From the NCBI GenBank assembly GCA_963792585.1, contig CAWBWI010000002.1, positions 64,001 to 128,000 on the forward strand: a stretch of 64,000 nt of DNA, in the 5' to 3' direction. A program made the position numbers and the translations under genes. Under the pieces are notes generated by a model. It did not search any database. It saw only the letters and a list, made by a program, of their open reading frames with translations, and was not told the DNA's origin. Below are positions 29,396 to 62,412 of the stretch, piece after piece (position 1 is the first letter of the stretch; each line of letters starts with the position of its first letter). Source of the DNA: Candidatus Eiseniibacteriota bacterium. Its GTDB lineage: Bacteria; Eisenbacteria; RBG-16-71-46; CAIMUX01; VGJL01.

Positions 29396-29734
29396 GGGGG
29401 CGCCTGGTTTCGACGGGGAGAGGGGAGCCAGGACAGCGTGCCGAGCCGCCAGGGCCTCGTTAATCCCATGGCAAAACATAACTGCCAACACTGAATTGGC
29501 ATTGGCTGCTTAGGTAGCCCGTTCTCTGTGATTGTGCCCACTGGGTTGCAGAAGGACGCTGTTACAGCAGGCTAGTCGCGGGATCGCCTCGTTACCGCGA
29601 CGAAACACTTGAGGCTGGTCCCAAAAGGATCCTGACGATCGGAGCCTCAGGGACGAGAATCAAATGATCGGATACGCACGTAGACGGACTGGTCGATCTC
29701 TTTTCGGACGCGGGTTCGATTCCCGCCGCCTCCA
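29396..29734 (+). ncRNA. ssrA: tmRNA; tag peptide (A)ANTELALAA* at 29484-29513
   Basis: 5' GGGGGCG pairs with 3' CGCCTCC-A including G3:U wobble; 'GGTTTCGACGGG' 5' motif; T-arm GGGTTCGATTCCC; tag ORF ending LAA; smpB nearby. Confidence 0.95.
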
Positions 29735-29742
29735 CATTCTAA

Positions 29743-30876
29743 CTACTTGGGTCCCAACGAGTTGACTTTCGAAGGGACCCCCGTCTCCACGCCGTCTCCA
29801 CGGCAAGTTCCGACGGTGCGATCCTCGAGCAGCCGGATTCCCGCCTCGATCGCGGCCGGTGATAGGTGCATGTACCTTGCCGTCGTGCTCAGATCGCGGT
29901 GTCCGGCGAGTTCCTGGATCGCCCGGGCCGGTGCGCCGCGCATGGCGAGATGTGAGCAGAACGTGTGACGGAGCACATGGACGCCCGCGTTCCTGAGGTT
30001 CGCCAGCCGCGCCGAACGCTCGACGAGGACGCGGACGATCTTCTGCGAGATCCCCTCCCCGTCCCCACGCGTCAGCACGCGCGGACCCTTCAAGTGCCGG
30101 TGCGAACGAAGTGCGTCGGCAAGCCTCGAGGTGAGCGGCACAAGCCGAGCGCGGCCGCCCTTCGGCGCCGTGACCTGGCCCTTCCATTCACTCCGGCGCA
30201 CCCAGAGCTGGCGCTTCCCGAGATCTACGTCCGTCCATTCCAATGCCATCATCTCGCCACACCGCAGGCCCGCCTCGCCTCCGAGCAGCACGATGATGTG
30301 GGCGCGGGCATCAACGTGACGGGCCGAGTCAACCAACCGCTCGTACTCGTCGAAGTCATGGAACGCTGCCTCACACGGCGGCTGCGCCCTCACAAGCCGA
30401 ACGGTGCAGGGCATCATCGCGAGCACGTCCCACTCGACCGCGACTTTGAGCAGCGTCGAGAGGACCGAGAGCACGTTATTGACGGTCTTCGGTGACTTCC
30501 CAGCGAGTTTGCCCTTCAATCGCTGGACGTCCTCATTCGAGATCTCATCGAGCTTCTTCCGGCCGAGCCGAGGAACGAGGTGCACCCGGAGGATCGTCTC
30601 TTTGGCCGCGATCCCCGATGGCTTCTGACGGTTCGCCTGCGCGTAGCCTTCGAGGAAACGCGGAGCGAACGTCGCGAACGTCGGCACCTCCTTTCGTGGC
30701 TTCTGGATTCCCTGGACCAACATCTCGCGCTCACGCGCTTCGGCCCACCGGACGGCGCCTGAACGCGACGACACGGGAGCCCGGCGGCGTTCCCGTTGCT
30801 TCGTTCCGTCAGGCATTCGCACGGCGATGTCCACTTCCCAGCCTCCGCGCCGATAGGGTCGGATCTTTACGCTCAT
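29743..30876 (-). CDS. Tyrosine recombinase / phage-type integrase
   Basis: 'GLRCGE', 'HVLRHTF', 'LAGH..TT.RY'; N-terminal arm-binding-like region; RBS AAGGAG. Confidence 0.95.
   Translation of the reverse strand: MSVKIRPYRRGGWEVDIAVRMPDGTKQRERRRAPVSSRSGAVRWAEAREREMLVQGIQKPRKEVPTFATFAPRFLEGYAQANRQKPSGIAAKETILRVHLVPRLGRKKLDEISNEDVQRLKGKLAGKSPKTVNNVLSVLSTLLKVAVEWDVLAMMPCTVRLVRAQPPCEAAFHDFDEYERLVDSARHVDARAHIIVLLGGEAGLRCGEMMALEWTDVDLGKRQLWVRRSEWKGQVTAPKGGRARLVPLTSRLADALRSHRHLKGPRVLTRGDGEGISQKIVRVLVERSARLANLRNAGVHVLRHTFCSHLAMRGAPARAIQELAGHRDLSTTARYMHLSPAAIEAGIRLLEDRTVGTCRGDGVETGVPSKVNSLGPK
29781..29802. repeat. Tandem 11-bp direct repeat, candidate integrase arm-type sites
   Basis: ccgtctccacg x2, about 47 nt from the ssrA 3' end. 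Confidence 0.55.
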
Positions 30877-30892
30877 CGCTTGATAGTCTCCT

Positions 30893-31114
30893 TCAAGGCG
30901 ATGGCGCACGACTTCGGTCGAGCCAGTGTAGCAGATCGTCCCGGCGCACGAGGCGGCGCCTTCCGAGCTTCGTCAGCCCTGGTAGCTGGCCCCGTTCGGC
31001 CATGGCGTAAACAGCCTTTCTCGATGTGCGCAGAAGTGCCGCAACCTCAGGAATCGTAAGCAAGATAGCGAGGTCATTGACGACGTCACTGAACGGGGAA
31101 TCTTTGGTTCTCAT
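30893..31114 (-). CDS. Excisionase-like HTH protein
   Basis: 'LLTIPEVAALLRTSRKAVYAMAERGQLPG..KLGRR'; directly upstream of integrase. Confidence 0.88.
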   Translation of the reverse strand: MRTKDSPFSDVVNDLAILLTIPEVAALLRTSRKAVYAMAERGQLPGLTKLGRRRLVRRDDLLHWLDRSRAPSP

Positions 31115-31827
31115 GACGCCGCCTGCCCCGCCTGCGGTGCCCCAAAAGCGACAGCCGAAGGTCGGCGCGATCGGCGCGCCGATGGATGATCGTTTGCTGC
31201 CTCGCGTTTAAGCCGCATGGCCGCGACCTCGCAGTACCGTTCGTCTATCTCAATGCCGACAGCTCGGCGGCCCAGGCTCTGCGCGGCAAGAAGGGTTGAC
31301 CCTGAACCCATGAACGGATCGAGCACCAGATCGCCCGGGTCACTCGAGTTCCCGATGAGCGCGGATAGGACGGCGACCGGCTTCTCCGTCGGGTGCAGCT
31401 TCAGCGGCGGCGGCGCAAAGCGGAGAATGTTGCCGAGGCCGCCGTCCCGAAGCCGGTGATCGGGTTCCGGGCAATACGCGATCCACTCAAACATGCGGCG
31501 CCAAGCATCACCCTCGCCAATCCGTCCCTTGTCCCAGATGAGGACGTTGGTGGGATCGAGCGTCGGGAACAATCGGATGCCGGCTCGCACGTCCGTGAAG
31601 ACGTAAAGGGCACCATCGGTCGGAAGCAAGCGTCTCGCGTCGGCCAGGACCCGTTCCAATTCATCGTCCTCAAGTAGCCGGAACCACTCCAGGCTTGAAC
31701 GACGGTGATCACGCCAGAAGTAGGGCGGGTCTGTCACGATGAGCGCCACCTCACGAAGACGCGGAAAGATCTCCCGGCAATCGCCGTGGTAGATCCTGAT
31801 TCCGCCGTGGTCGTAGTACGGCTTCAC
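31111..31827 (-). CDS. DNA methyltransferase (N4/N6, beta class)
   Basis: 'TDPPY', 'HPTEKP', 'VLDPFMGSGST', 'GIEID'; GTG start at 'VKPYY'. Confidence 0.9.
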   Translation of the reverse strand: MKPYYDHGGIRIYHGDCREIFPRLREVALIVTDPPYFWRDHRRSSLEWFRLLEDDELERVLADARRLLPTDGALYVFTDVRAGIRLFPTLDPTNVLIWDKGRIGEGDAWRRMFEWIAYCPEPDHRLRDGGLGNILRFAPPPLKLHPTEKPVAVLSALIGNSSDPGDLVLDPFMGSGSTLLAAQSLGRRAVGIEIDERYCEVAAMRLKREAANDHPSARRSRRPSAVAFGAPQAGQAAS

Positions 31828-32088
31828 GGCTGGTCCCGCCGGACGGACAGACCACAGGAAGCTCCAGGGGTTCGACCAGGAGCAGGCCGACACGCCGAAG
31901 GAGCGCCTTGGTAGGAATCCATAGACTCGGTGGCATGGGGTGGCGATTGGAGCGCAGAGCGCGAATCAACACGAACCACCAGCCGGACACCCGCCGTGCG
32001 CATACCGAGAGAACAACAGCCCGCAGACCAAACAGCCCAGCTGCAGACCGACAGACGGCGGACATGTTCAACGACGCTACGCATTTTC

Positions 32089-32950
32089 CTAAGGCCGCCC
32101 TTCAGTCGGCCCGCGACCCACAGCAATTCCAGCAGTTACGGCCGGACCCCTCCCCTTGCGGTAAGGGGAGGACATAAGGGGAGGACGGAGCTCGTTCACC
32201 GCGCCCGTCAGGTGCGCCCGAAGCTCCTCGCGGTCTCGCCAAACCATCCACCAGCCGGACCAATGCCCCGCAATGCACGACTCGACGGATCGTCTTCTCG
32301 GAGCAGAGGCGCCGGGCACGAAGGCACACAGCCCGAACTCGGGCCAGCCGAAGAGCCCCCCGTTTTGACGCTGCCTCTCGTATGCCCCGATTTTCCGGGC
32401 GAGAACGGACAGCGCCTCCGTTCCAAGGTCCACTTCCAGGGCTAGGCGAATGGCGAGCGGGTCGTCACGACGTCCGATCGAAAGCTGAACCACGGCGTCC
32501 GGAATCACGGGGGATCCGACCGTGTCGGGATGTTCTCGAATCTCCCAGTCGGACCGAACCAGATCGAGTCGCAAGCCGTCAATTTCGGTCGGCCACGATG
32601 GCCAGATCAACCCAGGCGCGAACAATGGACAGGTGGTGCGCGACGCCGCCGCGTGGCGCCCGCAATGGCTGACCGCCATGTGCCTGGACCCAGGCGCGGC
32701 CGGCAGGGCCGAGGACGTAGCGGTTCTCCTCCGATCGGTCACCAGAACGGACGTCAAGAAACCCGGCATCGAAGAGCCGACGCAGTCGACAGGCAACCGT
32801 GTCCCGCCGGGTGTTGGGAAATGCGAAGCAAACTAGGTCGCTGGTTCGAGCCAGACGAAATCGGGCAAGCGCATCAAGAACGACCTGGTCCCGCTCAGAC
32901 AGGCGGACGCGTACTCCGCTGCGGCGGCGGTCTCGTGGCTGCCGACTCAT
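32089..32950 (-). CDS. Replication-relaxation (Replic_Relax-like) protein, frameshift near 32590
   Basis: wHTH 'LSERDQVVLDALARFR..RLRRL', 'HHLSI' in one frame; 'IPDA..LEVDLGTE..KIGAY' in the other. Confidence 0.75.
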
Positions 32951-33303
32951 GACGGATCCCGCATCAGGGGGTTGAGGATGGGGATTCCGCAATGCCTGCA
33001 CGGGGTCCAACCCGCTGACTGTTTGCAGACGCGGCAACGGGCGAAGACCCACCCTTCATGCAGGTGGGCCGGCGCCGCGCTCGAGCACTCGAACACACCA
33101 TAGGCCGGACTCTCATGGCCCCGGGGACAGATGAGAGTCTCAGAACGAAGCTCGGGCAGCATTCGGAGAAACCAGACGGTCCGACGGACGGTCTGAAGGC
33201 CCAGCCAGACGGTGGCGAGGATCCAGGACCCCGCTCGAAACACGGTGAGGACCATTCGCCCCGCCAATCCGAAATCCCCGTCCATGTCCGTTACCCCAGA
33301 CAC
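32947..33303 (-). CDS. Small membrane protein with Zn-ribbon
   Basis: Hydrophobic N-terminus; CPRGH, C..H, CRVC, CRHC; overlaps both neighbours. Confidence 0.65.
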   Translation of the reverse strand: MSGVTDMDGDFGLAGRMVLTVFRAGSWILATVWLGLQTVRRTVWFLRMLPELRSETLICPRGHESPAYGVFECSSAAPAHLHEGWVFARCRVCKQSAGWTPCRHCGIPILNPLMRDPS

Positions 33304-34850
33304 GGGAACGACTCGTCCCGCCCTTCCGCGTCCGTGTTCGTGAAGACCGGCTTGCCCCGTCTCGTAGCCTCAGGAGCGCACTCCAGGTCCGCTTCGACCC
33401 GTTCGCGGGGTAACGCCACGATCCCGCGCTCGAGAAACGCACGGATTTCGTCAGGCAGCCCTTCACCGGTTGCCCGAAGCCTTGCAAGATCAAGTCGGGG
33501 CGAGCGCACCTTCTGGGCACGAAACGGCCGGCTCTTCAGCCACAGGTAGAAGGTGCGATTCGGCAGTCTTGGAATCTCTTCCAAGAGTCGTTGGCGTTCG
33601 GCGTGCGCCTGCTTCGGGTCGGCGCCGAGCGGCAAGGCGTGGGTGATCGACTTGGCGTCCTCGAAATTGGACCGGAAGATCGCTTCCAGGTCGGCGTTCG
33701 TGCGCAGGAGCTTCACCAGGCCCGAATCGAGTTGCGCGATCTGCTGATTGATGAACGTGAGCCCCACTTTTTCGTGTCGCGCCAGCGCCAGGAGGCGGCT
33801 GAACTGCTCGGTCTGCTTGCCAGATACCGCTTCCTGGAATTCCTCGAAAAGTACCCAGGCTTGCCGGGACCGATCAGTCAGGCGCCGCGACAGAATCGCC
33901 CGGCTCAATCGTCCAACCAGGATGCCGGCCCAGAACCGCGCCGCCCGTTCCGCACCGGCCGGGGGGTCTCCGAGGTCGATCACCGTCACGCCCCGAGAGA
34001 GGCTGTCCGCGAACGAGACACATCCGGGAGTGGAAAGCGCGAGGCGCGTTTGTCGCAGGAAGAGAAATACGTCGAGCCGGGCAATGAGCGCATCAACCGA
34101 CGCCCGCGCTTCTCGGGCGAACGTGCCGGCGGCGTACTGCCGGATCACCGGGTCGGAAGAGTTCCGCGCCTCGTCTTCGAACGTGCGGGGCTGTTCCAAC
34201 CACTGCTGCAACGCGGTCAGAGGTAGATTGCGCTCGATGGCGAGCGAAACGAGCTTCAGAAACACGCGGTTCATGCGGATGCCGAGATCGTTCCCGATCG
34301 TGTCCTCGATGGCCGAGGCGATCGCGAAGGCCTGGACTTCACGCGGAACGCCCGGCTCGGGCAGGGTGATGCGAAGCTCGGGCACGTACCGCGCGTCAAA
34401 GGGCCGAATGATCCTAAGCCGTTCGAGTAGCCGGCACCCGCGATCGGTTTGGGCGAGCTGCGGCAAGGCCACCTGGGTGAGGAGCACCGAGAGTTCGCCC
34501 TTGAGGTCTACGAGTACCACCGGATGCCGGCCGGATCGAAGCACCTGAAGGAGCAGGGCGAGCACGAAGAAGCTCTTGCCCGCACCGGTGCTGCCGGTAA
34601 TCCAGCTGTGCATCGAGAGCAGCTCTCTGGCGGGAAGCCCAGCCCAGAACGCCTCTCCCTCGAGCGAGACAACTCTGGCCAGGCGGACCTTGCTACTCCG
34701 GCTGCCCACCGCCATCGCCTGCTCGAAGCTCCGCTGGTCGCGCCGGGCGTCGTGGTCCTTCTCCAAGGCGATTTGTCTCTGCCAGTGCCGGGCGCGCTCT
34801 TCCTCTCCGTGGACGAGCCGGGAGCGCAACGACAGGAATGATGAGTGCAT
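33291..34850 (-). CDS. VirD4/TraD-like coupling ATPase (HerA/FtsK superfamily)
   Basis: Walker A 'GSTGAGKS', 'VDLKGE', Walker B 'LFEEFQ', 'ARH..INQQIAQL'. Confidence 0.8.
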   Translation of the reverse strand: MHSSFLSLRSRLVHGEEERARHWQRQIALEKDHDARRDQRSFEQAMAVGSRSSKVRLARVVSLEGEAFWAGLPARELLSMHSWITGSTGAGKSFFVLALLLQVLRSGRHPVVLVDLKGELSVLLTQVALPQLAQTDRGCRLLERLRIIRPFDARYVPELRITLPEPGVPREVQAFAIASAIEDTIGNDLGIRMNRVFLKLVSLAIERNLPLTALQQWLEQPRTFEDEARNSSDPVIRQYAAGTFAREARASVDALIARLDVFLFLRQTRLALSTPGCVSFADSLSRGVTVIDLGDPPAGAERAARFWAGILVGRLSRAILSRRLTDRSRQAWVLFEEFQEAVSGKQTEQFSRLLALARHEKVGLTFINQQIAQLDSGLVKLLRTNADLEAIFRSNFEDAKSITHALPLGADPKQAHAERQRLLEEIPRLPNRTFYLWLKSRPFRAQKVRSPRLDLARLRATGEGLPDEIRAFLERGIVALPRERVEADLECAPEATRRGKPVFTNTDAEGRDESFPCLG

Positions 34851-35212: not shown

Positions 35213-35809
35213 CTACTCCAGGGCGAGGATGGTCCTGGACGGGACCTCACACCGGACACCGTCTGACAGGATCAGGATGGAGCGGGAACGGCCGCGCTTC
35301 TCAATCACGACCCGCTCGCCCGGCCGGATCACTCGATGGGTCGTCGCATCCTCAAAGAGCAGGCTGTCCACGACGATCCCCGGTCCATGCCACGGCTTGG
35401 TGTCTTTCCCCAAGAACCCACCCCAGACCCAGCCGCCATACTCCCCGGGAACGCGCACCTGATACCAGCCGTTCTCTGACTTCTCGATCCGGGCTTTGTC
35501 GCCTACGGTAAGAAGTCGGTACACCCGAGCAGAACTGTTCGGTGCGGCGCACAGAGGTACGTTCTCCGCCACGATCCGGCTATGAAACTGCCGCATGGAT
35601 GCTTCATGAACCTGATAGCCAGCCACACCGACGATCACCAATAGCAGGATCACCGCACAGGCAATGATCTCACCACTCACGCCGCTCGGAGCTGTTGCTT
35701 GCGGTGTTGGCCGGGGGACGCTTCGGGTTGCCGGGTTCGAGAGTGCTCGGGCCACCTCGGGTCGGAGGTTTCCGTATTCGTCGGCCAGCCAGTCCGTGTC
35801 AGAGTTCAT
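35213..35809 (-). CDS. Single-TM protein with bacterial SH3 domain(s)
   Basis: TM 'IIACAVILLLVIVGVAGY'; 'NVPL.AAP..LTVGD..NGWYQV..GWVWGGFL'. Confidence 0.75.
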   Translation of the reverse strand: MNSDTDWLADEYGNLRPEVARALSNPATRSVPRPTPQATAPSGVSGEIIACAVILLLVIVGVAGYQVHEASMRQFHSRIVAENVPLCAAPNSSARVYRLLTVGDKARIEKSENGWYQVRVPGEYGGWVWGGFLGKDTKPWHGPGIVVDSLLFEDATTHRVIRPGERVVIEKRGRSRSILILSDGVRCEVPSRTILALE

Positions 35810-36935
35810 TGCATCCCGCCTCGCTATCTGTCTTCCAGCCACACACCGGGCAGGGCTCCCGTCGGGCTACTCGGGCATGGATCAGGTCGAAGGGCATGTT
35901 GAATAGCTCGGCGAGTCCGCCTTGAGGAACACTGCCGCCGTGCAACAGCAGGAATTCGTGGCCGGAAGCAACAAGGTCTGCACGGCTTCCCATGGGATCC
36001 AGGAGAGCGAGGACGTGCGCGGTGGCAACAGCGGACAGGTACGCGATATCTGCTCCAAGGCCGGGTTCCGCTTCGAGGCGCTCAGTGTCGGCCGACTGGT
36101 AGGCTTGCCGACGTTCCTTGACCGACACTCCTTCGCCGAGGCCCAGCCGGAAACCAATCGCACAGAAGGCACAAGGTCCTTGGCCCGGCCGCACGACGAT
36201 GATCTCACCGCCTGAGGCGCGCTCGTAAGCTCCAATGAAGATGCCCGGAGTGTTGGTCCGATGCAGCTTTCGTTTGCCACGAAATTGCGCGGCCGGACTG
36301 TCGGTGGAGGCGACAACCACATCCGATGCTCCGATCAGCTTGTCCAGATCGGCCTCTGAAAGTGTCAGTAGATCGATGTCATGCCCGTCACCGTGGGCCA
36401 GGCGCCGCTTCAAGAGATCGGCCACGACACGGACCTTGGGTCGGGCGAGATCCATGAGGTCCCCCGCATGACGGGAGAGGTTGGCGGCGTCTAGCGTATC
36501 GTTGTCGACGATTCCGAATCGACCGACTCCGGCTTCCGCCAGCAGAAGGCCGACCTGCGACCCGACGCTACCGGCGCCGACGAGCAGGACTGAGCGCTCC
36601 GCCAGACTCATCCCCGTAGAGGGACGGATCCGTCGACTGTCCAGACCTTCCTCCACATCGACCAGATGGACCTCATTTGGTCTCGGTAGCCCGTGGCGAA
36701 GCTTCAGCGCGTACTCGTTTCCGTCCACGCTGAGAATCAGCGAGCCCGGATGAATTGGCTTCCTCGTTGCGATGCCGAGTTCCTCCAGTTGACCGTCTGG
36801 CCAGGGTTCGCTGCTCAGAATCTGGATAAGGCTTTCGCTCAGTCTTGCCAGGCCGTAGACGGGCGACGAGTCGCTTGAAGATGCTGCGGCCAGGATGGCC
36901 TGCCTGCTCGCTACGAGCCGAGGCGCGACACTCAT
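35799..36935 (-). CDS. ThiF/E1-like adenylating enzyme with ~105-aa N-terminal extension
   Basis: 'VGAGSVGS', 'DNDTL..NLSRH', 'PKV', 'STDS', Zn motifs CAFC and CPVC; RBS AAGGAG. Confidence 0.9.
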   Translation of the reverse strand: MSVAPRLVASRQAILAAASSSDSSPVYGLARLSESLIQILSSEPWPDGQLEELGIATRKPIHPGSLILSVDGNEYALKLRHGLPRPNEVHLVDVEEGLDSRRIRPSTGMSLAERSVLLVGAGSVGSQVGLLLAEAGVGRFGIVDNDTLDAANLSRHAGDLMDLARPKVRVVADLLKRRLAHGDGHDIDLLTLSEADLDKLIGASDVVVASTDSPAAQFRGKRKLHRTNTPGIFIGAYERASGGEIIVVRPGQGPCAFCAIGFRLGLGEGVSVKERRQAYQSADTERLEAEPGLGADIAYLSAVATAHVLALLDPMGSRADLVASGHEFLLLHGGSVPQGGLAELFNMPFDLIHARVARREPCPVCGWKTDSEAGCNEL

Positions 36936-37458
36936 GCGGGACCTTCTCCTTTCCTTTCGGCGGTTCATTCAGAAGAATCCTTCGAATCCGCGGGTCCGAA
37001 TCGGGCACGATTTCAATGGGGATCTCCACGAAATCGTCGGCCTCTCGTGTCATCAGGTAGGCGCGCAGATGGACCTCACCGTCTTGAAGCGTTGCGATCG
37101 GGAACGCAGCCATTTCCGTGTCCCAATCCGGACTCGTCACAATCTCTCGGGCTGTCTGCCAGTCACGGCGACTCGGATGGTCCATTCGACCTGGGTGGAG
37201 GTGGACATCCCCTTGGTAAGAGAGAGTGAAGCGCTTAAAGAGATAGTCGAGATAGTGCTGTTGCCAGGCACAATCCGGCTCGAAGCCCGTCAGCGAGCGT
37301 CCAGCATTCGGCCCCGCCGGCACGACAAAGGGCACGATCAGATCTTCGCCAAGTTTGCCGCCGACCAATATGGCGCCGGTCTCTGTTTGGCTGTACTCAA
37401 GGCAATCATTCACAAGCATGTCGTGCGCTCGATTGGACAGGACTAGAGTCGGAGGCAT
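36673..37458 (-). CDS. JAB/MPN metallopeptidase (3' end uncertain, overlaps E1)
   Basis: 'ETGAILVG', 'AGPNA', 'GDVHLHP..PSRRD' = E..HxH..S..D; ATG coupled to E2 stop (TGATG). Confidence 0.88.
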   Translation of the reverse strand: MPPTLVLSNRAHDMLVNDCLEYSQTETGAILVGGKLGEDLIVPFVVPAGPNAGRSLTGFEPDCAWQQHYLDYLFKRFTLSYQGDVHLHPGRMDHPSRRDWQTAREIVTSPDWDTEMAAFPIATLQDGEVHLRAYLMTREADDFVEIPIEIVPDSDPRIRRILLNEPPKGKEKVPHECRASARSEQAGHPGRSIFKRLVARLRPGKTERKPYPDSEQRTLARRSTGGTRHRNEEANSSGLADSQRGRKRVRAEASPRATETK

Positions 37459-37875
37459 CAAAACACCTCCCCGTTTTCGAGCCAGTTGAGATAGGCGATC
37501 AGCCAGGAGGCAGCGAGCCCGACACAGCTTGCGGCAGTCCCGGTCATCGGATCCCACGATGCCTTGTGCACGCAGATGCTGTGCGTCATCTGCATAGACA
37601 TGCGGCGCACCTGATTGAAGAGGCGGATGCTCGAGAAACAATTTGGGTTCGGAGTAGGGGAATTGCGTCGGATAACGCAGCGAGACAACGAAGGGATATC
37701 CTGGAACCGGCTCAAGGACCCCGACCCATCGGAGCCCGCCGTCCCCAGCCTGCGCAAGCTTGAAGCCTGGGAAGCGACTTCCCATGATTTCAGCCTCAGC
37801 CACCAACCGTGATCGCCACTTCGGGTCTTCCCACCACACGGTTTGGCATACCTCCCGGCGAGGGCGAGAAGGCAC
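37458..37875 (-). CDS. Prokaryotic E2 (UBC-like) enzyme, frameshift near 37580
   Basis: 'RFPGF..WVG.L..YP..FP..EP..APHVYAD' then shifted frame 'SICVH..WDP..WL..Y..W'. Confidence 0.8.
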
Positions 37876-37898
37876 CCGCCCCCGCCGTCTTGTGGGTT

Positions 37899-38538
37899 CT
37901 AGTTACGCCGAGTTGACTCGATCACCGAGAGGCTCTCCACCCCTCCTGCGACCTCGTCAGCGCGGATTGTGAACAGCCGTCCATTGATAGCCACCGCGAT
38001 GGCCTTCTGGCCTGCGGTGACGAGAAGCCGATCAGGAGAGGTCAGGATCGCTGCGTGCTCGCCATCGGTCGGAGGGTTGGGTAAGTACGACAGGACGACC
38101 TTGACGGGCTCGGGGCCGGTCGACCGGCCCTCGTCTACCCACCTCCCAGATCCGGGAATCGCAGTCACTCCGCCTGCGATTTCGAGGAGCGAGGTTTCGA
38201 GCGCGGCCGCACCGAGATCGGCAGGAAGTCGGTGACCGCTGCGGTCGTTCACAGGTGCAAAGACAACCAACTGGCGTGCGTTCTTCAGCGCATTCGCCAG
38301 CCCGGCCCGGTCGGTTCTGGGATCGGGCAAGTCCTCGCATCCACCGACGACAGCTAGCCCGCCGATTGAGAGGCCGAAGGTGCGCGGCACCAGCTTCGTT
38401 ACCTTCCTTGTGGGTAATCTGTCCGCCCGTTCGGCTTGTGGGGTCTGAGCCTCGCGGACATGGCCGATTTGGATCGACTTCGACCTCGCGATCGCGACGT
38501 ACGACGGCATCACGCAGCCGCCGCAGGTTCTCGTTCAT
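37899..38538 (-). CDS. 55-aa leader (..VEVDPNG..KVTKLVPRTFG) fused to PII/DUF3574-like domain; +1 indel near 38466
   Basis: Strong RBS AAGGAGGT before ATG 38538; removing one base joins 'MNENLRRLRDAVVRRDREVEVDPN' to 'GHVREAQ..'; C-terminal 'P..D.SG..GGVT..G.W..Q.AI'. Confidence 0.65.
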
Positions 38539-47511: not shown

Positions 47512-50500
47512 GTGACGACGCTCCCGAAAGCTCGCGACCGATTTCTCACGCTGGTCCGCGCCGTGGAGTGCGGAACTACGGCGCGCAGTGAGAACGAGCT
47601 GTCCCGGCGCTTTGCCGATGTGCTCGAGGGCCTCGGTCTCGCGACGGTGGTAGACACGGGGCAGGCTGGGTCACGGAAGCGACCGGATATCCTCGCGTAC
47701 TGCGATCCGGTGGACGCGGACCTTGTGCTCCATGCCGACGTGGTCGTCGAGTCGAAGACACCAGATGAGGTCAAGGGCTACGCCGACCTCGGAGTAGCGC
47801 TCGCCGAAGGGCTCTGGCAGGGGAAGACCATCCCGTACATCCAGCAGAGTATTTCGCGCATCCGCTACTTCGTCCTCACTTCATTCGTGGAATTCGCTTT
47901 CCTCCGGGTCACGGAAGCACTCCGGGCGGAATTTTCCAGGCGTTCTCCCACGGACCTCGCCACGGATACCGCTCTTCAGGCGAAGGTTCGGTCGGAGGTG
48001 CATCTCGTCTCGCTCGCGAGCAGCAGCGGGGCGGGGAGACAAGCGGCAGAGCGGGCTTGGTCGGCGTGGCTCGACACGCACCTCCGGCCGGGGATCCTTG
48101 CCCCACTCGAACTGAGCGCGATGGCGAAGACGGCACCCCTGCGGACGCACAGCGACCTTGAGCTCTTCGCCACGCGGCTGGCCGAACTGGCCGCCGGCAC
48201 GCCGGAGAGTTCCTACGTTGCAGCGGCGCGGGCAGGGCTTTTCGGGAGCATCCGCGCCAGGCTCCCGGACAACTACAACCTGCTCGACGGCGAGACCAAG
48301 AAGGACCTACACCTCTTCGTCATGTCCCAGCAGCCGTCGGCGGATCTCGACACAGTCGGCAAGATCGTCTCAGAGGATCCGGACCGCTGGCTCGATGACT
48401 TTGTAGCCGCCAGCATTCACTCGCTCGTCAGCCGGCTGTTCGCACTCAGCGTCATCGAGGATCTCTTCTGTTTAGACGACACGAATCCCCTCATCGAGCG
48501 AGAACTGTTGGTTGTGAACGTGAAGGCATACGATGGACTCGACGCGGAGCGGCTCGTTGCGGCGGTGACGGCTGCCGTCCGGCGGCTCAAAGAGAGCGCG
48601 AATCCCGTCGCCAAGCGACTCGCGGTGTTCGGGGCCTTCTTCGATTGGATCGAACGATACCTCGATCCGGTGCTCTTCAGACCGTTGTTTGAGCTCTTTG
48701 TGACGCACGATTTCCGCCAGCTTGATCTTGATCTCCTCGGCCGCTTCTTCGAAATCTACGCGCAGCGCATCAACGCCACCCGGCGTCGGGCGCTCGGGCA
48801 GTATTACACGCCCCTTCCGGTCGTGCGCTACATGTGGCGGATCACCCTGGACGCACTCGCAGCGCGGAACGTCGAGCTGCCAGCGGTCACGGTGCTCGAC
48901 CCCGCGATGGGGTCTGGGACATTCTTGAAGGAGGGAGCGAACGCACTTGGGCGCGCGCATGTGCCATCCTTCTGGCAGAACCTCGTCGGATTTGACATCT
49001 CGCCCCAGGTTATGGGCATCGCCCAGGTGAACTTCTACATATCGGTACTCTCAAACGTCCCGCGAGAGGACGCTTTGCGCGTCGCCGACCTCCGCCTGTA
49101 CACGACCGACGCCCTAGATCCACGCAACGGCAGGTATCTCAAGCAGGTCCAGCCACTCTTCGACGACGCCACGCACCGAGAGTTCCTCCAGCGCGTCATC
49201 GAGGTGAGCTCGCGTATCAAGCGTCACGACCACTTCCCGGTCGTTGTCGGTAATCCGCCGTACAAGAACAACAGCGCCCTCACGCTCGCTCAGGTGGCTG
49301 AGCGCTTTCCCCGGTTGCTCTCCAGCTCGGTCGCTGGCGCACGTGCCCAGGTACGGAACATCCGCGACGATTACGCTTGGTTCTTCGCAGCAGCCGATGC
49401 GTACGTGAGCGACCGAGGCCACATCTGCTACATCACGTCTGATTCGTACACACGGACGTCGAGCTATCGGTTCCTTCGCGAAGAGCTGCTCAGGCATTAC
49501 GAGGTGCTTCAGCTTGTGCGGCTCGGGACGCACGTCTTTCCTGATGTCAGCCATCGGATCTCGTTCGTCATCATTCATCTCGCACGGCGGGAACAACCGC
49601 TTGGGAACGCAGAAGACGCTGCGCCATTCCCGTTTTACGATTTGCGCTCTCTGGCGGAGGAGACCGGGCCGGAGTTTCTTGCGACGCCGGACGATCCGCG
49701 TTTCCGGCTCCTTGAGGCCGTCACGGCGGGAACAGGCTCCCTCCCCGCGCCCCTCATGGTGCATCCGGCCAGGGCTCACGACTTCGTCCTGCTGCCGGTG
49801 TCCGAGAGCGTCGTGAACCGGGTGCAGACGGAGGGCGTGCCGGTCTTCGCGAAGCAGGGGAACCGGCTCTTCGTCGCGAAGTGGCCGGGCGTGATCACAG
49901 CGTTCGACGCCCTGCTCAAAGGTGAGGACCGAGGGGAACTCGTGGAGCGCTTGTCCTCTTATTTTGCCGTGGCGCACAGGCACCGGAGGAACGTGCGGGC
50001 GCTTGAGGATGCACTGGGGAAGTGGGCGGCCGGACACGGCATTCGCCAGGACGACACTCCGCGGCTCGTCTCGGTCGCGTTGGCCGCAGGCCAGAACGGA
50101 ATTGCTTTCGACGAAACCAAGATCAAGCGGAGCGCGTCGGGGTCGATCCCGAACGAACTGAGGTGGTATCCTCCCCCGAAGTTTCGACACTGGATCTACT
50201 ACGAGCCGGCCATCAACATCCCGCGCAACGTTAATCCCGGCAAGTTCGAGGGCTGGGGGTGGATGCAGCAGTGGCGGGAGCCCGCCTCCCATACGATCCG
50301 ACCGAAGCTCATCTTCACGACCACGACAAACCCGAAATCGGGCTACAAGGCATTTGTGGTGGACGACGAGTGGTACGTCAAGCTCCACGGCGGTACGAGC
50401 CAGCAATATAACTACACAGGCCTCGTCAACCCATTGATGCCGCTGACCACTTCCGGCGTGGAGAACAACCTCACGCCTTTCGGGGAGAGACTTCGAACGT

Positions 50501-50928
50501 TGCTCCTTGACGGAGGCGGAGTGGCGGAGGATTTGCTGCACTACATCGCGGCCATCTACAACTCAGCATTGGCACAGGAATTCCTCGAGGAGGAATCGAG
50601 CCACAACCTCCAGATACGCATTCCGAGTGGCCGACGCGCGGCAGAAAGGTCTCTGAACCTCGCGTCCGCAGGTCGCCGGCAGCGGGATTTGCATCGTCTG
50701 CTGTACGACTGCCCGAAGAACAGTCAGGTCGCAGCGAGCACGATGCTTGCATTGGCGCCGGAGGCTCTCCTCTCCGAATTGGGATTCGTATTGTCGGCAG
50801 AGCGGAGGGGGCGATATCGTCCAAGTAACACATACAGCCTACCGGGCGATATTGAGGAGATTCTGACGGCCGAGATAGCCCGTGGCCAGGAGACAGTGGA
50901 CGAAATGGTGGAGCTCCTCTACTCCTGA
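47512..50928 (+). CDS. Type IIG-like restriction-modification fusion (nuclease + N6-adenine MTase + TRD)
   Basis: 'RPDI..VVESK', 'GQYYTP', 'LDPAMGSGTF', 'GNPPY'; no helicase motifs seen. Confidence 0.85.
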   Translation: MTTLPKARDRFLTLVRAVECGTTARSENELSRRFADVLEGLGLATVVDTGQAGSRKRPDILAYCDPVDADLVLHADVVVESKTPDEVKGYADLGVALAEGLWQGKTIPYIQQSISRIRYFVLTSFVEFAFLRVTEALRAEFSRRSPTDLATDTALQAKVRSEVHLVSLASSSGAGRQAAERAWSAWLDTHLRPGILAPLELSAMAKTAPLRTHSDLELFATRLAELAAGTPESSYVAAARAGLFGSIRARLPDNYNLLDGETKKDLHLFVMSQQPSADLDTVGKIVSEDPDRWLDDFVAASIHSLVSRLFALSVIEDLFCLDDTNPLIERELLVVNVKAYDGLDAERLVAAVTAAVRRLKESANPVAKRLAVFGAFFDWIERYLDPVLFRPLFELFVTHDFRQLDLDLLGRFFEIYAQRINATRRRALGQYYTPLPVVRYMWRITLDALAARNVELPAVTVLDPAMGSGTFLKEGANALGRAHVPSFWQNLVGFDISPQVMGIAQVNFYISVLSNVPREDALRVADLRLYTTDALDPRNGRYLKQVQPLFDDATHREFLQRVIEVSSRIKRHDHFPVVVGNPPYKNNSALTLAQVAERFPRLLSSSVAGARAQVRNIRDDYAWFFAAADAYVSDRGHICYITSDSYTRTSSYRFLREELLRHYEVLQLVRLGTHVFPDVSHRISFVIIHLARREQPLGNAEDAAPFPFYDLRSLAEETGPEFLATPDDPRFRLLEAVTAGTGSLPAPLMVHPARAHDFVLLPVSESVVNRVQTEGVPVFAKQGNRLFVAKWPGVITAFDALLKGEDRGELVERLSSYFAVAHRHRRNVRALEDALGKWAAGHGIRQDDTPRLVSVALAAGQNGIAFDETKIKRSASGSIPNELRWYPPPKFRHWIYYEPAINIPRNVNPGKFEGWGWMQQWREPASHTIRPKLIFTTTTNPKSGYKAFVVDDEWYVKLHGGTSQQYNYTGLVNPLMPLTTSGVENNLTPFGERLRTLLLDGGGVAEDLLHYIAAIYNSALAQEFLEEESSHNLQIRIPSGRRAAERSLNLASAGRRQRDLHRLLYDCPKNSQVAASTMLALAPEALLSELGFVLSAERRGRYRPSNTYSLPGDIEEILTAEIARGQETVDEMVELLYS

Positions 50929-51026
50929 AATTCTCAACTTCCGGGAGAGTGGATTCTCGTCAATGAGACAGTCTACAGCTTCGTTGGAGACCTGCCACGC
51001 GGTTGTGAACGAACGACAACCCTACC

Positions 51027-52916
51027 TCAGCACATCCGGCCCTTCCCAGCCCGCCTCGGGACAAGGGAGAGAGCTGGCCAGATCAACGCGCGGGTCACGA
51101 ACACATCGACCTTCCGTTGCCCGGCGATGTGCGAGCCGTAGTGTCCACGGGCGGCATCGAGGAGCCGCATGGCCTCGGGAATGTCACCTTGATACATCGC
51201 CGCGATCCCCTTGGCGCAGATTGCGTTTCCGATGCCATGAGATGTTCCCGTCCAGCGGTAGTAGTCTTCCGGTTCGATCATGAGAGTCCGTGCAACCCGT
51301 CCGCGCGCCACCCTGCTGAGCGCTGCGGCGACTTCGCAGTACCGGGGGTGTACGAGCATCGTATAGTCAGGCAGTGGGTCTTCGGAGAGGCGCCGGGCAG
51401 ACCGCAGGTACCGCACATACGCGACACCTGCGCGGCGTAGCCACCGGTCGCGAAGTTTCCCGAGGAACGCCAGTACAACGCGGTCCGCAGCGGCAACCAG
51501 CCGCGGCATCGGACTGCGACCGCGCATTGCGATCCAAGCTGATGGCACCAAGACGTACTCTCCAAGAAAATGCCAGAAGTCTCCTCGCTGCCAGTGAGAT
51601 CGCAGGACGACCTCGGGAGCGAGATCACGCCGATGTCGAACGAGCGCGCGGCGCCATGTTAGATAGCAGTGAATGCGGGAGGGGCGGCGCTTCCACAGCC
51701 CAAGAGCCGCGGAGGCCAGACGAAGGTGCAGGACCGCGCGATCCTCCTCGGGGGCCAGACGCACTGCACGGCGCCATGCCCGGTAGGCATCGTTGACCTC
51801 TCCACCTCGTTCAAGGATGTGCGCCAACAGAGTCTCCTCTGCGGAGGGGATTCTCCCGGCCGCAGTGGGGAATCTCCTCCCGGCGGCCAACAGCTCCTTC
51901 GCGAGCTTCCGCTCCCCGACTTGGTCGGCCAATGCCGCGAGGATCAGGGACACCGACCGTGGCCGGGACGCATCGGTTCCAAGCAGTTCTGAGACGGCGT
52001 CCCTCAACTTGGCCAGACGATGGGATATCTCCTCGTCGCACATGCCATCCATGCGGCAGTTCATCATCCGCGCGACCGCTGGGGAGACGCTTCCGAGGAC
52101 ATCAGCGAATCCGTGTTCGCCCTCGCGGCGCCGGACAACGGCAGCCCGCCCACCGAGGCCCATCAATGCCTCGGCCACAGGGGGCGCGATCCTGCCATGG
52201 TGCGTATACCAGAAGATCCGCCGATTCGTCCTTCGGAGTATCGGGAATGTATCGATGTCGTGGTTGCTATACCCGGCACAGACGATGTCGTACTGCTCAA
52301 GGGCGTCCCGCAGAAGCGCGGCTCGCTCGGGCGCCAACCCTGTGCCGACCGTGCGAATGGTGGCGACGAGTGACGGTGCCACCCGGCCTTCCTCGATGGC
52401 TCCGTGAAGGTGCGCGACCACCGGGCGGTCCGCGGCCAGAGGGCGCCGCGACCGAAAGTCCGATCGTGCCTGAAGCGACAGGCCGTCGGTCCGCCCCAAC
52501 GCCTCGAGCGCTTTCTCGTGCAGGCGATCGAAGTTGAGTGTCACGACAAGCTTGGCCGGATGCAGGATTTGTGCCGCTGCGATCGCAAGGTGGTCTGCGT
52601 TCACCGTCGCGGTCGAGAAGCCGCTAAACACCCGGCCGACCGCATCTGGTGCGGCCCTCATCAACGCACTGAGAAAGACCTCCATTGGCGCCATGGACGC
52701 AATCCGAAACGCCTGGTCCAGCCTCGCACCGGAGAGATGCGTGCCCAGGGGCGCTCGGCCGGCCCTGGCCAGCGCGTCGACCGCCACCTCGATGATCTCG
52801 GCGCTGAGCGGTACGTTACTCGGAGCGGAACGCGAGATCCCGGCTCCGGTAAAGAACACGAGGCCCTGTTCCAGGCTTGCTCTGAGAGCGTCGCGGTTGG
52901 TATCCATCGGTGCCAT
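51027..52916 (-). CDS. SIR2-like domain fused to TPR-like helical region
   Basis: 'FFTGAGISR', 'VVTLNFD', 'HLHG', 'AGYS..D.D'; helical repeats C-terminally. Confidence 0.8.
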   Translation of the reverse strand: MAPMDTNRDALRASLEQGLVFFTGAGISRSAPSNVPLSAEIIEVAVDALARAGRAPLGTHLSGARLDQAFRIASMAPMEVFLSALMRAAPDAVGRVFSGFSTATVNADHLAIAAAQILHPAKLVVTLNFDRLHEKALEALGRTDGLSLQARSDFRSRRPLAADRPVVAHLHGAIEEGRVAPSLVATIRTVGTGLAPERAALLRDALEQYDIVCAGYSNHDIDTFPILRRTNRRIFWYTHHGRIAPPVAEALMGLGGRAAVVRRREGEHGFADVLGSVSPAVARMMNCRMDGMCDEEISHRLAKLRDAVSELLGTDASRPRSVSLILAALADQVGERKLAKELLAAGRRFPTAAGRIPSAEETLLAHILERGGEVNDAYRAWRRAVRLAPEEDRAVLHLRLASAALGLWKRRPSRIHCYLTWRRALVRHRRDLAPEVVLRSHWQRGDFWHFLGEYVLVPSAWIAMRGRSPMPRLVAAADRVVLAFLGKLRDRWLRRAGVAYVRYLRSARRLSEDPLPDYTMLVHPRYCEVAAALSRVARGRVARTLMIEPEDYYRWTGTSHGIGNAICAKGIAAMYQGDIPEAMRLLDAARGHYGSHIAGQRKVDVFVTRALIWPALSLVPRRAGKGRMC

Positions 52917-52998
52917 CTCAGGCCTCCAGGATACCAACGGCCACTCGCTGCGGAACAAAAAAGCACCACCCCGTGAAGTAGTGGCGCAGTGGGACCCG

Positions 52999-53295
52999 CT
53001 ATGAGGATGTCCCGATCCCCCGGTCTTCACGGGGCATTGGCCGCGTTGACCAGAAGTTGCCTAGGAATAGGGCGTGACCGCCCAGCGAACCGCTCCGCAC
53101 TTCCGGCTTGAGGAGGGGCCGGAGCCAACAGTCGCCATTTGCCTGGACGAGAAGCACGTACCGGGTATCTCCCTCTTGGAGGAAGCTCGCTGTGCTAATG
53201 GGCTGCAAGTGCCCTCCTTGTCCAAGCCCCACGCAGAGGACCCAGAAGATGAGGACGAGCAGCACGATGATGATGCCGAGTGCAGCCATGGTCAT
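52999..53295 (-). CDS. Small membrane protein
   Basis: RBS AAGGAGGT; N-terminal hydrophobic helix. Confidence 0.55.
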   Translation of the reverse strand: MTMAALGIIIVLLVLIFWVLCVGLGQGGHLQPISTASFLQEGDTRYVLLVQANGDCWLRPLLKPEVRSGSLGGHALFLGNFWSTRPMPREDRGIGTSS

Positions 53296-53595
53296 ACTCT
53301 TCACCTCCTTTGCTTCCGCACACCCGCGGGCGATGAGCGGAATGAGAAGGTGACGAGGGGACCGATGCTCCTTCTGCGGTCCACAGACTGGGGCTGGTGA
53401 ATGGTGCGGGGACGAGCGGGGGGTCGTTCGGCTCGAACCCGATGTAGCCTTCGTCGGCCCGCTTCTTCGCCTGACGGCTCGGGGTCGGGCAGCCCTTCGC
53501 AGCGCGGGCCACCCCGTCCTAGCAGCGGGAGGCGCGAGGGGCTGAATGAAGGTAGCGGAATGTCTGCCGAGCACAGGCAGGATGATCGCCTGAGG

Positions 53596-54093
53596 TCACG
53601 CTCCCGGCCCGTGGGGCAATGGCGGCGTTCCCGTCGTCTCGGCCAGGGCTTCTTTGATGCTGGGCCACCTGTCCTCCAGAACCTCAAGCCTGAGAATCGC
53701 CTCCGCAAGGGCCGGACAAGGATCGGCGCGACGCTCGAGACGGTCCGCCACTGTCCGTTCGTATTCAAGAAGATCGATCGTGATACCGTATTCGGCGATC
53801 CGGGAGAGGAAGAAAGACCGCAGCGCGGTGAAGTCCAGGCCGCGGGAGGCGCACTCCCTCCGCGAGATGGGCGGTCCGAACATCCGGTGGGTGTGGTCGG
53901 CGGCGAGACGCGCGGCCACAATCCCGTCAGTAAGGGAAGCGATCACGTGTAACGCGGCCGCGACCAGTTCGATATCCAAGGGCTTCGGGCTCTCGCCAAA
54001 TCGTGTGTGTCGGAGGAGATCCGGGAGCGGCCTCCTTGGCCGGCCAGTGCGCGTGCGGTCCTTTGCTGGGAGCGCATTCAAGAATTCCTGCAT
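53596..54093 (-). CDS. Hypothetical protein
   Basis: ORF with plausible composition; no recognised motif. Confidence 0.35.
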   Translation of the reverse strand: MQEFLNALPAKDRTRTGRPRRPLPDLLRHTRFGESPKPLDIELVAAALHVIASLTDGIVAARLAADHTHRMFGPPISRRECASRGLDFTALRSFFLSRIAEYGITIDLLEYERTVADRLERRADPCPALAEAILRLEVLEDRWPSIKEALAETTGTPPLPHGPGA

Positions 54094-54347
54094 GCGGCCC
54101 GGGTGTGTGTTTACGTGGGAGATCATGTAGGGGGGTTGATTGCTGAGTGCGGTCACTCTACCAAGATCGCGTCTGGGTGTCAACCCCACCCCGGGCCGTC
54201 GGGCGGCCTTCCCTGCCGGGTCCTGTCGCTACTCCGTTCAGGCTTACCGACTTGATTGGAGTGGTTTAGAGACGTCAGCATATCCGAGTACCATGATGGA
54301 CTCTCTTCGCAGCCATGGTTCTAGTACAATGCTTTGCGGAGGGCCGT

Positions 54348-55520
54348 ATGTTGGACCACATGCCAATCGAGAACATCGACCGGGCGAGATTACAGTTGCT
54401 CGTTGAGCACCGGATTCCCGAACAGCTCACCCTGGAATACAAGCGGGCACTGCCGGGTGGATCACTGAAGGAGCGAAAGGAATTCCTGGCGGACGTGACC
54501 GCGTTTGCCAACACCGCGGGCGGGCATATCGTTTACGGGATCGAAGAACTCCGCGAGTCCGGGAAGAAGACAGCGATTGCCAACACACTCAGGGGGCTAC
54601 CTGCGGTGGACGTCGAGGAGGCGATCCACCGGCTGGAGCAGATGATTCTGGCCGGGACGACCCCAGCGCTTCGCGGTTGCCGATTCCACCGAGTGCCCCT
54701 GGAGAACCACGAGGAATCTCTGGTCCTGCGCATCCCGCGCAGCTGGGCCGCGCCGCATGCGGTGACGCTTGAGGGAGGGTTTCGGTTCTGGGCTCGTCGC
54801 TCAAATGGAAAGGGCCAACTGAACGTGCCGGAGCTTCGCGCAGCATTCCTGCGCTCTGATGTGGTGGCGGAGAGAATCCGGCGGTTTCGCTTCGAACGAA
54901 TGGCGGAGATCCGCGCCCGTCAGACTCCGCTTCCGATCACCGAGGGTGGCGCCGCCGTCATTCACGTTGTGCCCTTCTCATCGTTTGACCTGGGGCGGTC
55001 AGTTTCCGGTGAAATGCTCTACAATTGTCGGGACCAGCTCGCCCCGACTTGGGGAGGGGCTGAAGGGCACTTCGTCACAGCGGAAGGGCTATTCGCCTAT
55101 GCGACGAATAATGACCGTGACCGGGCCATAAGCTATGCTCTCGCCTTTCGCGACGGGCCGATTGAATACGTTGATGCCGAGTGTTTTCGCCGCAGAATCG
55201 AAATCACCTGGATACAGATCGAAGCATTCCGCGCTCGAGCAATTCAGGCGGTGGAGCAGGCCTTGAAGTTGCTAGAGCGCGTCGACGTTCTCCCTCCGGT
55301 TTCCGTTACGATGAGCCTGTTGGACGTACGAGGGTGCCGGTACCAGGAGACCTCGGCTCATTACTTGCATCCACATGCCATCCACTGCGAGGAAGTTCAC
55401 TCTCCCGACCTCGTGCTCGATAGCTACGACATCGACCTGACCTCCGCGCTCAAACCTGCGTTTGACGTGCTCTGGAATGCGGGCGGATGGGTCGTGTCGC
55501 CGAGGCCGATCACCGCCTGA
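54348..55520 (+). CDS. Schlafen AlbA_2 domain protein
   Basis: 'E..TLEYK..EFLADVTAFANTAGGHIVYGI.E', 'PH..R'; ends 'WNAGG'. Confidence 0.85.
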   Translation: MLDHMPIENIDRARLQLLVEHRIPEQLTLEYKRALPGGSLKERKEFLADVTAFANTAGGHIVYGIEELRESGKKTAIANTLRGLPAVDVEEAIHRLEQMILAGTTPALRGCRFHRVPLENHEESLVLRIPRSWAAPHAVTLEGGFRFWARRSNGKGQLNVPELRAAFLRSDVVAERIRRFRFERMAEIRARQTPLPITEGGAAVIHVVPFSSFDLGRSVSGEMLYNCRDQLAPTWGGAEGHFVTAEGLFAYATNNDRDRAISYALAFRDGPIEYVDAECFRRRIEITWIQIEAFRARAIQAVEQALKLLERVDVLPPVSVTMSLLDVRGCRYQETSAHYLHPHAIHCEEVHSPDLVLDSYDIDLTSALKPAFDVLWNAGGWVVSPRPITA

Positions 55521-55559
55521 TTGCCGAAGAAGTCCGGCGACGGAAAGCTAGCCCTCTGA

Positions 55560-55819
55560 TGCCGCCCGACGGAAGTACCGGCGATACATCCCGCCAACCG
55601 TCGGCTCGTCGAGAATCCCCCCCCCACGCTGGGCCGCCCGCTACCCCGCGGAACGGGATAGCCCTTCTCCAACCCAAAGTAAGTTCGCGAACCGTGGTAG
55701 TCCTCAAGGTAGCCTCGAACCACGCGCCGGAGACGCCTCTCGCTGAAGAAGATCTCCATGGCAAGGGCAAGCTGCGAATGAAGGACGGAGATCAGGGTGC
55801 GGAAGAGGGTGAAAGGCAT
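55560..55819 (-). pseudogene. Internally deleted rve-type integrase/transposase remnant
   Basis: 'FSERRLRRVVRGYLEDYHGSRTYFGLEKG.P' resembles the C-terminus of integrase-core proteins; DDE core absent. Confidence 0.55.
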
Positions 55820-55937
55820 GACGGTGAGGCTAACGTGGGCCCAACGCCATCTTCACACTTCCCAACGCGGACGGGGTTCTTTTAAGGAACAGGTGATCAG
55901 TATTTTCTTGGAGTATGCAGACAAGGATTTGAGAACG

Positions 55938-56150
55938 TTATACCCTTGCATACCGATAGATGTTCTTAATGTTCTGAGCGAGGAATTGACCAGTTGAAGG
56001 AGCGACCTTCAATTCCTCAAAGACAATCTCAGGCACGTCGAAATACCGATAGCGTCCGCCATTCCTGAACTCGACGGTCAGGACTGAGCTTTCCGGGTCG
56101 TAGCCAAAACCGGAAATGTTAGATGAATTGGGTGTCGTAATCCAGTTCAT
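55938..56150 (-). CDS. KTSC domain protein
   Basis: 'SSNI..GYD..L.VEF..G..Y.YFDVP..F..L..APS.G.F..I'. Confidence 0.92.
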   Translation of the reverse strand: MNWITTPNSSNISGFGYDPESSVLTVEFRNGGRYRYFDVPEIVFEELKVAPSTGQFLAQNIKNIYRYARV

Positions 56151-61630: not shown

Positions 61631-61654
61631 AAGCCGCCTCGGGAGAGACGGCTT
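61631..61654 (-). terminator. Terminator downstream of the DUF932-like gene
   Basis: Minus strand AAGCCGTCTC-TCCC-GAGGCGGCTT followed by pyrimidine run. Confidence 0.55.
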
Positions 61655-61660
61655 GTGTGT

Positions 61661-62392: not shown

Positions 62393-62412
62393 GGTACGAA
62401 ACCTCCTTTCGG

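Follow-up and report, generated by a model that had tools for sequence, protein, structure and literature searches.

What does a bacterial E1-E2-JAB operon conjugate when it encodes no ubiquitin-like protein (Ubl)? The question is raised by a 64,000-nucleotide stretch of a Candidatus Eiseniibacteriota genome (GCA_963792585.1, contig CAWBWI010000002.1, positions 64,001 to 128,000; G000:C2:64001-128000 of the 7-contig assembly), referred to here as the window. A first-pass annotation of its letters had noted E2, JAB and ThiF/E1 genes next to one another, and had proposed that a gene upstream of them encodes a short peptide modifier ending in Gly. The analysis presented here favors, with a probability of about 0.72, conjugation of this peptide by its cognate E1, E2 and JAB, the modifier being predicted not to have the ubiquitin fold. 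The genes concerned, and the one that always follows them, are these (window coordinates):

38373..38538, minus strand: predicted peptide modifier precursor of about 55 aa, composed of helix, beta-hairpin, low-complexity linker and TKLxxRTFG; frameshift near 38463
37899..38372, minus strand: DUF3574/PII-fold domain, probably SAM-lyase-like, in frame after TFG; G76, W78, E88 and Q122 kept, Lys in place of the Glu that follows the Gln in most homologues
37458..37839, minus strand: E2 with UBC fold, frameshifted near 37590-37580; the invariant Cys lies within PHxYxxGSxC (codon 37574-37572)
36673..37458, minus strand: JAB/JAMM metallopeptidase; E-HxH-S-D intact; tail overlapping the E1 start in another frame
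35799..36935, minus strand: ThiF/MoeB-fold E1; N-terminal domain of about 95 aa, two CxxC Zn motifs, no conserved crossover-loop Cys, invariant Tyr279 (36101-36099)
35213..35809, minus strand: membrane protein with N-terminal DxxGxLxPE, transmembrane segment and SH3 domain, directly after E1; candidate recruiter or target

A ribosome-binding site (38551-38545) precedes the ATG at 38538, and there are no gaps between the genes from E2 on. The frame opening at this ATG shifts near 38463, passes TKLVPRTFG (38399-38373) and enters a domain of 157 aa ending at 37899. The TFG codons are 38381-38373, and 38375-38373 is predicted to encode the reactive Gly. The annotated layout, including the contiguous minus-strand E2, JAB and E1 and the indel-corrected leader behind a ribosome-binding site, is confirmed by these coordinates, by the match of E1 to PF00899 (8.6e-22) and by the JAB residues E26, H86, H88, S96 and D99, all of which are unchanged across the aligned JABs (12 of 12, counting that of the window). 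A search for a sigma-70 promoter gave none, and terminator counts were near chance. Besides the indels in the leader and in E2, the latter just before the Cys codon, a compensated pair lies in E1 near 36290-36255, and the analysis was therefore built on intact homologues. In most loci the JAB frame overlaps the first part of the E1 gene (window:36673-36935), which gives JAB a basic tail in an alternative frame.

Of the 74 matches to the E1, 69 are close relatives with identities of 37-100%, the protein of the window being one of them. Alignment of E1 brought in 7 loci from genomes (4 with Candidatus Eisenbacteria in their titles), 19 from metagenomes and none from viruses; three further stretches were added from genomes. 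The peptide gene stands upstream of E2-JAB-E1 in all 16 loci with upstream DNA, about 13 of which are distinct, so that the expected conservation of the leader beside these enzymes is borne out. Two other loci end before the peptide position; in the genome of one of them the peptide lies on a different contig. In a set of 206 genomes from the phylum, eight have this E1 and the identical eight have the peptide, one of them with the two on separate contigs; some of these genomes overlap the locus set, so the counts are not additive, and kin are not independent. A ninth peptide match (G102, E 8.8e-4), within a frame of 1166 aa in a genome lacking the E1, was dropped as chance. The codons of conserved peptide residues vary synonymously across 11 loci. 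As first annotated, no recognizable Ubl or CD-NTase (cGAS/DncV-like nucleotidyltransferase) substrate accompanies the enzymes: there is no beta-grasp or CD-NTase gene in the window operon, no Ubl family matches the peptide or the neighboring genes, and no CD-NTase lies between peptide and integrase in any locus.

The peptides themselves are conserved in a telling way. A profile of nine sequences retrieved 155 proteins, and TK[LI]xxxx-F-G is present in 119 of the best 120 of them; in the same best 120 the tail after the Gly has 1-2 aa in 92, none in one, 3-18 aa in 23 and 41-65 aa in three. A profile of 91 sequences, run against 1.84 billion representatives, gave 72 matches. A relaxed form of the motif occurs in 159 of 170 peptide-search matches, the 11 misses being truncated or frameshifted copies and repeat proteins. 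Among the 159, the last conserved residue is Gly in 152, Ala in four and Ser in three, and the residue after it is unconstrained (17 types, or a stop in three). This pattern, in which conservation stops at a small residue, marks a trimmed modifier; BilA, which BilC trims to a Gly (10.1101/2023.09.26.559546), is an example. The predicted cut after TFG or a nearby GG can accordingly be narrowed down: TFG has the conserved Gly and the variable tail, whereas LSIGG and LAVVGG are not conserved.

The mature peptide would be 49-63 aa long, with a Pro/Glu/Ala-rich linker (5.7% hydrophobic). In an AlphaFold (AF2) model of a natural fusion protein, the peptide part begins with a helix (2-13), continues with a hairpin (19-29) and ends in a tail of coil, at pLDDT 56-64. 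This predicted helix-hairpin-coil order is not that of a beta-grasp fold, in agreement with the non-beta-grasp leader proposed earlier. A structure search with the fusion model returned matches to the C-terminal domain, which filled the list. The peptide had no match in NCBIfam, PADLOC, Pfam or PHROGs, none in IMG/VR or PLSDB plasmids and no usable one in the ESM Atlas; its best E value against Protein Data Bank sequences was only 1.3. A relationship of the hairpin to the DxxGxLxPE motif was rejected (probability 0.1). A subtype without the N-terminal helix (L011:3210-3368, L018:5752-5919 and L047:14123-14290) ends in TKLSPHTFG and keeps hairpin and tail, and the distant peptides P0230-P0238 end in TWG, TWA, TFS or AFA.

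The enzymes are of recognizable kinds. The E2 family matches the PADLOC E2 at 5.8e-23, and its Cys is invariant in 11 of 11 sequences and aligns with the UbcH7-type catalytic Cys of solved E2s. The nearest profiles for E2, JAB and E1 are those of the E2, JAB and E1 of CBASS (anti-phage signaling systems based on cyclic oligonucleotides); the GGGxH loop present in 9 of 9 CBASS E2s fetched is not in this E2. The E1 is one adenylation protein of 375 aa, modeled at pLDDT 85 with a MoeB fold (Z 26.7), and MccB (Z 22.9), PaaA (Z 21.7) and BubCD (Z 21.3) are among its structural neighbors; it has no match in INPHARED phages. Its crossover loop (272-288, of low confidence in the model) has an invariant Tyr in 65 of 65 sequences (Tyr280 in the family, Tyr279 in the window) and no conserved Cys; a pattern count gave six of 57 loops with Cys, of which four are the residue right after CxxC, one is sporadic and one a mismatch.

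In Bub, the sole invariant residue of the E1 crossover loop is a Tyr that forms an oxyester (10.1101/2024.11.21.623953), and for this reason a Tyr-to-Cys relay is plausible by analogy. The tail on which the Cap2 E1 acts is disordered, and the Cys of this E1 was dispensable in vitro (10.1101/2022.03.31.486616, 10.1101/2022.05.25.493364, PMC12948482, PMC11153139), which makes direct transfer from adenylate to E2 an alternative. The E1 N-terminal domain partly overlaps Atg7 and Cap2 in the ranges of the structural matches, and the matching domain positions E2 according to the same CBASS papers; the resemblance is taken as a lead only. That this domain is a dead JAB was rejected (hhalign probability 0.1).

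Three known systems come close. Like Bub (6E/DUF6527; 10.1101/2024.11.21.623953), the present system has a homodimer-type E1 without crossover Cys and with one invariant Tyr; the Bub JAB (BubCD) cleaves a BubAB fusion precursor after Gly, fused precursors are also found here, and the JAB-E1 fusion of Bub is seen once. That case (L046:8115-10396) is a natural variant in which the peptide stops exactly at the Gly (L046:8339) and JAB is fused to E1 (570 aa), which suggests that JAB is retained also for deconjugation. However, Bub modifiers are beta-grasp Ubls and BubB uses Ser-His, in contrast to the invariant Cys of this E2, and no DUF6527 was detected among the neighbors scanned. Like Bil (BilABCD; 10.1101/2023.09.26.559546), the system has separate modifier, E2, JAB and E1 genes and few residues after the conserved Gly, but BilA is a beta-grasp protein and BilD has the IAD-AAD-CYS architecture with a catalytic Cys, unlike the single adenylation protein described here.

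Type II CBASS (Cap2/Cap3) and E2-CBASS (CdnG) conjugate a non-beta-grasp tail ending in Gly or Ala (10.1101/2022.03.31.486616, 10.1101/2022.05.25.493364, PMC12948482, PMC11153139), and CdnG tails, which end in NTF[FY]G behind a helix and small sheet, bear a likeness to this peptide. Comparison of the peptide with CdnG tail profiles gave no signal above controls, with 11 and 10 tails, and such tails are described as conserving structure rather than sequence. Unlike in CBASS, the predicted tag here is a free peptide, with no CD-NTase or effector gene in the operon or, in any locus, between peptide and integrase; a SMODS gene lies 60 kb away in this genome, and in L046 the distance is 5.5 kb, with the gene on the opposite strand. 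Pup and UBact are also short, largely unstructured peptide tags ligated through their C-terminus; pupylation relies on the glutamine-synthetase-fold enzymes PafA and Dop and a terminal Glu/Gln, not on E1, E2, JAB and Gly. The five operon types 6a-6e, as given in PMC1779556, do not include this system, and no description of such a peptide system was found in the literature searched, in which subscription papers and supplements were mostly not represented. Judged by its sequences, the system would share its mode of action with Bil, Bub and CBASS conjugation yet lacks at least one defining feature of each, and its modifier would represent a new class.

The peptide of the window is fused to a PII-like domain. 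Five intact proteins of 185-205 aa likewise join the peptide TFG to such a domain, one of them from a genome of the window's own family, and the window's fusion is therefore probably genuine. The earlier assignment of the domain as PII/DUF3574-like holds, if weakly by profile (5 of 10 family members match DUF3574, with 4.5e-4 as the best E; PHROG 3543 is matched as well), and the ESM Atlas places it in phage-rich clusters (TM 0.64). It can be made more specific. The best solved match of the domain model is the phage S-adenosylmethionine (SAM) lyase 6zm9 (Z 10.5, root-mean-square deviation 3.6, 112 aligned residues, 13% identity), the next match having Z 7.6 and PII/CutA proteins about 7. SAM lyases are an anti-restriction class and counter SAM-dependent restriction. 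The columns G76, E88 and Q122 are invariant in a 10-sequence alignment and, together with W78, correspond in type and spacing, by motif rather than by structural alignment, to the strictly conserved G56, E69, Q104 and Y58 of Svi3-3 (PMC7877911), whereas a Lys occupies the E105-like position in the window. On this evidence the domain may be a SAM-lyase-like enzyme of the Svi3-3/T3 kind.

The idea that JAB would free this domain is only partly upheld: five intact fusions exist, but as a rule the peptide has a gene of its own, and the domain, fused or as a separate gene, is found in only 6 of 16 loci, so that its release would be a side effect and not the purpose. The expectation that the leader is fused to varied domains was not borne out, as the PII-like domain is the sole partner seen.

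The cassette does not stand alone. Toward the integrase, the window continues with:

33291..34850, minus strand: VirD4/TrwB-like coupling ATPase
32089..33052, minus strand: Replic_Relax relaxase (PF13814, MobC), split over two frames
31111..31893, minus strand: DNA methyltransferase (N6_N4_Mtase)
29743..31114, minus strand: excisionase-like small open reading frame and tyrosine integrase
29712..29740, plus strand: first of two copies of a 29-bp attachment repeat, at the 3' end of tmRNA; the other is G000:C2:183690-183718

The DxxGxLxPE membrane protein follows E1 in all 26 non-window loci with downstream DNA (its profile was built from 15 of these). Downstream, 10 long loci were scanned: all 10 have a VirD4-like ATPase, eight Replic_Relax and five the tyrosine integrase (those reaching far enough), and one additional locus has all three. 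The order peptide-E2-JAB-E1-membrane protein-VirD4-MobC-integrase is fixed and co-directional, while the upstream cargo varies by locus and is often defence-related; no case of the cassette outside such an element was met wherever the DNA extends far enough. The 29-bp repeat bounds an island of 90,007 bp, and other elements sit at tmRNA, tRNA-Cys or tRNA-Ser. PF13814 is MobC, and VirD4-MobC-excisionase-integrase is a described layout of integrative mobilizable elements (IMEs; PMC5357655). By gene content, integrase, attachment repeat, relaxase and coupling protein are all present, and on this basis the cassette belongs to the conserved core of a predicted IME, not to its variable defence cargo. 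This context, like the Tyr in place of Cys in the E1 loop, had escaped the first-pass annotation. As in the VirD4 and MobC class (PMC5357655), the coupling protein-relaxase-excisionase-integrase module is compact, and no VirB4 mating pore is encoded in the scanned stretches; unlike in that class, as described there, the integrase is a tyrosine and not a serine recombinase, and the peptide-conjugation cassette and membrane proteins stand in front.

From these genes, motifs, conservation, synteny and predicted folds, the following chemistry, target and role may be proposed. JAB would cut after the Gly of TKLxxRTFG, removing the short tail or, in fused forms, the SAM-lyase-like domain. The ThiF-fold E1 would adenylate the Gly and then form a Tyr279 oxyester, as in the Bub E1, or pass the adenylate straight to E2. 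The E2 would carry the peptide as a Cys thioester and ligate it to a target protein; the DxxGxLxPE protein would probably bring this step close to the membrane, and JAB would reverse the link. Protein tagging by the element, with a short peptide of a type absent from the families and papers searched, is thus likely. Should conjugation take place, a role in element transfer, establishment or counter-defence seems somewhat favored, since the cassette lies in the fixed core of the element, and phage defence would be a less probable purpose. The most detailed version, in which a free non-beta-grasp peptide is ligated through a hybrid relay from Tyr oxyester on E1 to Cys thioester on E2 and used by the mobile element for counter-defence or transfer control, JAB also freeing a SAM-lyase anti-restriction enzyme, is doubtful as a whole.

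Several observations weigh against the proposal or parts of it. The loci were gathered through E1, and peptides without E1 could have been missed outside the 206 genomes. Peptide and E1 similarity show no significant correlation over eight loci (Mantel r 0.21, p 0.19). The indels in the window's peptide, E2 and E1 may mean that this copy is mis-assembled or decaying. A second Cys of E1, C159 (60/65), could serve as the nucleophile, and Tyr279 may be equated with BubD Tyr370 by loop and invariance, not residue for residue, in a loop of low model confidence. Finally, the island is rich in defence genes, CBASS included, which also fits a defence role.

This last point leads to the rival reading that survives best, which differs from the favored one in role only: a stand-alone anti-phage system like Bil or Bub, with the same chemistry, would tag phage proteins and hitch-hike on the element. 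The characterized bacterial E1/E2/JAB systems in the cited papers are antiphage, proven or proposed (10.1101/2024.11.21.623953, 10.1101/2023.09.26.559546), the nearest profiles are those of CBASS, and restriction-modification, Sir2-HerA, TIR and CBASS genes occur on the island. Against a hitch-hiker stand the fixed, co-directional gene order running through the integrase behind a variable upstream cargo, the restriction of the cassette to such elements as far as the DNA reaches and the optional partner resembling a phage SAM lyase, and this reading is considered unlikely.

A product other than a protein conjugate is more improbable still. In this case JAB, E1 and E2 would activate the C-terminal Gly in the manner of the processing of ribosomally synthesized and post-translationally modified peptides (RiPPs), giving a self-cyclized peptide, a peptide chain or a small-molecule adduct (MccB/PaaA-type adenylases). 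The helix-hairpin leader with its conserved C-terminal core resembles a precursor peptide, MccB and PaaA are structural neighbors of the E1, and T46 and K47 are invariant in the 91 close members. In the wider set, however, Lys is replaced by Arg in 9 of 159 and Thr by Ser or Pro in 8, so that neither is a required nucleophile, and self-cyclization through the TK residues was rejected on these substitutions. No transporter or tailoring enzyme is conserved nearby, and RiPP clusters of the ThiF type are not known to include an E2 with a catalytic Cys. Least probable of all is that the true substrate is encoded elsewhere or that the peptide is a sulfur carrier rather than a protein tag, since, although other contigs of the host carry three ThiS-family genes that end in GG and a CD-NTase with an NTFFG-type tail lies 60 kb away with an E2 homologous to this one (hhalign E 7e-15), that CD-NTase has its own E2 and turned up in no more than 2 of the 8 genomes that have the system (a single query), the peptide and not the ThiS or CD-NTase genes tracks E1, and no sulfur-transfer or biosynthetic genes are conserved nearby.

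Further features of the element were noted. The E2-CBASS operon just mentioned (L049:13873-17779, equal to G000:C2:160873-164779, minus strand) lies on the same island and comprises a helix-turn-helix and peptidase-like regulator pair, a SMODS CD-NTase whose NTFFG tail carries 5 extra residues, its own E2 and an HNH-like/SAVED effector. Defence cargo within the window (47512-63780) includes an Eco57I-type restriction-modification system, two SIR2 proteins (one with HerA), Schlafen AlbA, Mrr and a PD-(D/E)XK nuclease, with TIR, CHAT and a second Mrr further along the island. A second tyrosine recombinase within the island (window:46174-46812) and a serine recombinase in another locus (L048:8281-10266) suggest nested elements. 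The mobility module is often interrupted by genes for M23 peptidases or DNA methyltransferases. Directly upstream of the cassette lies an unannotated open reading frame of 199 aa (window:38535-39134) with a weak paralogue on contig C6 (E 0.003), the place of which is taken by sigma-70 region 4 proteins in L001 and L016 and by a sigma-54 activator in L004; DUF932 is found upstream in three loci (L006:477-1199, L011:41-1218, L047:18321-18695), in one case next to a RadC-like JAB. Lys is absent from the first 40 residues of the DxxGxLxPE protein (window:35690-35809) in 16 of 16 related sequences (0 of 640 residues, against about 1.5% in neighboring proteins), which may avoid self-tagging.

If the favored reading is true, E1-E2-JAB chemistry would need neither the ubiquitin fold nor a large carrier, a peptide of 55 residues being enough, and Pup-like peptide tags would be joined to ubiquitin-like enzymes. 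The system offers a natural test of the Tyr-to-Cys acyl relay. It can be tested directly in Escherichia coli, as only four small genes, taken from intact homologous loci, are needed, and it is a potential compact, orthogonal tool for protein ligation. For the bacteria that carry these elements, it would mean that bacterial ubiquitination can serve the spread of a mobile element and not host immunity.

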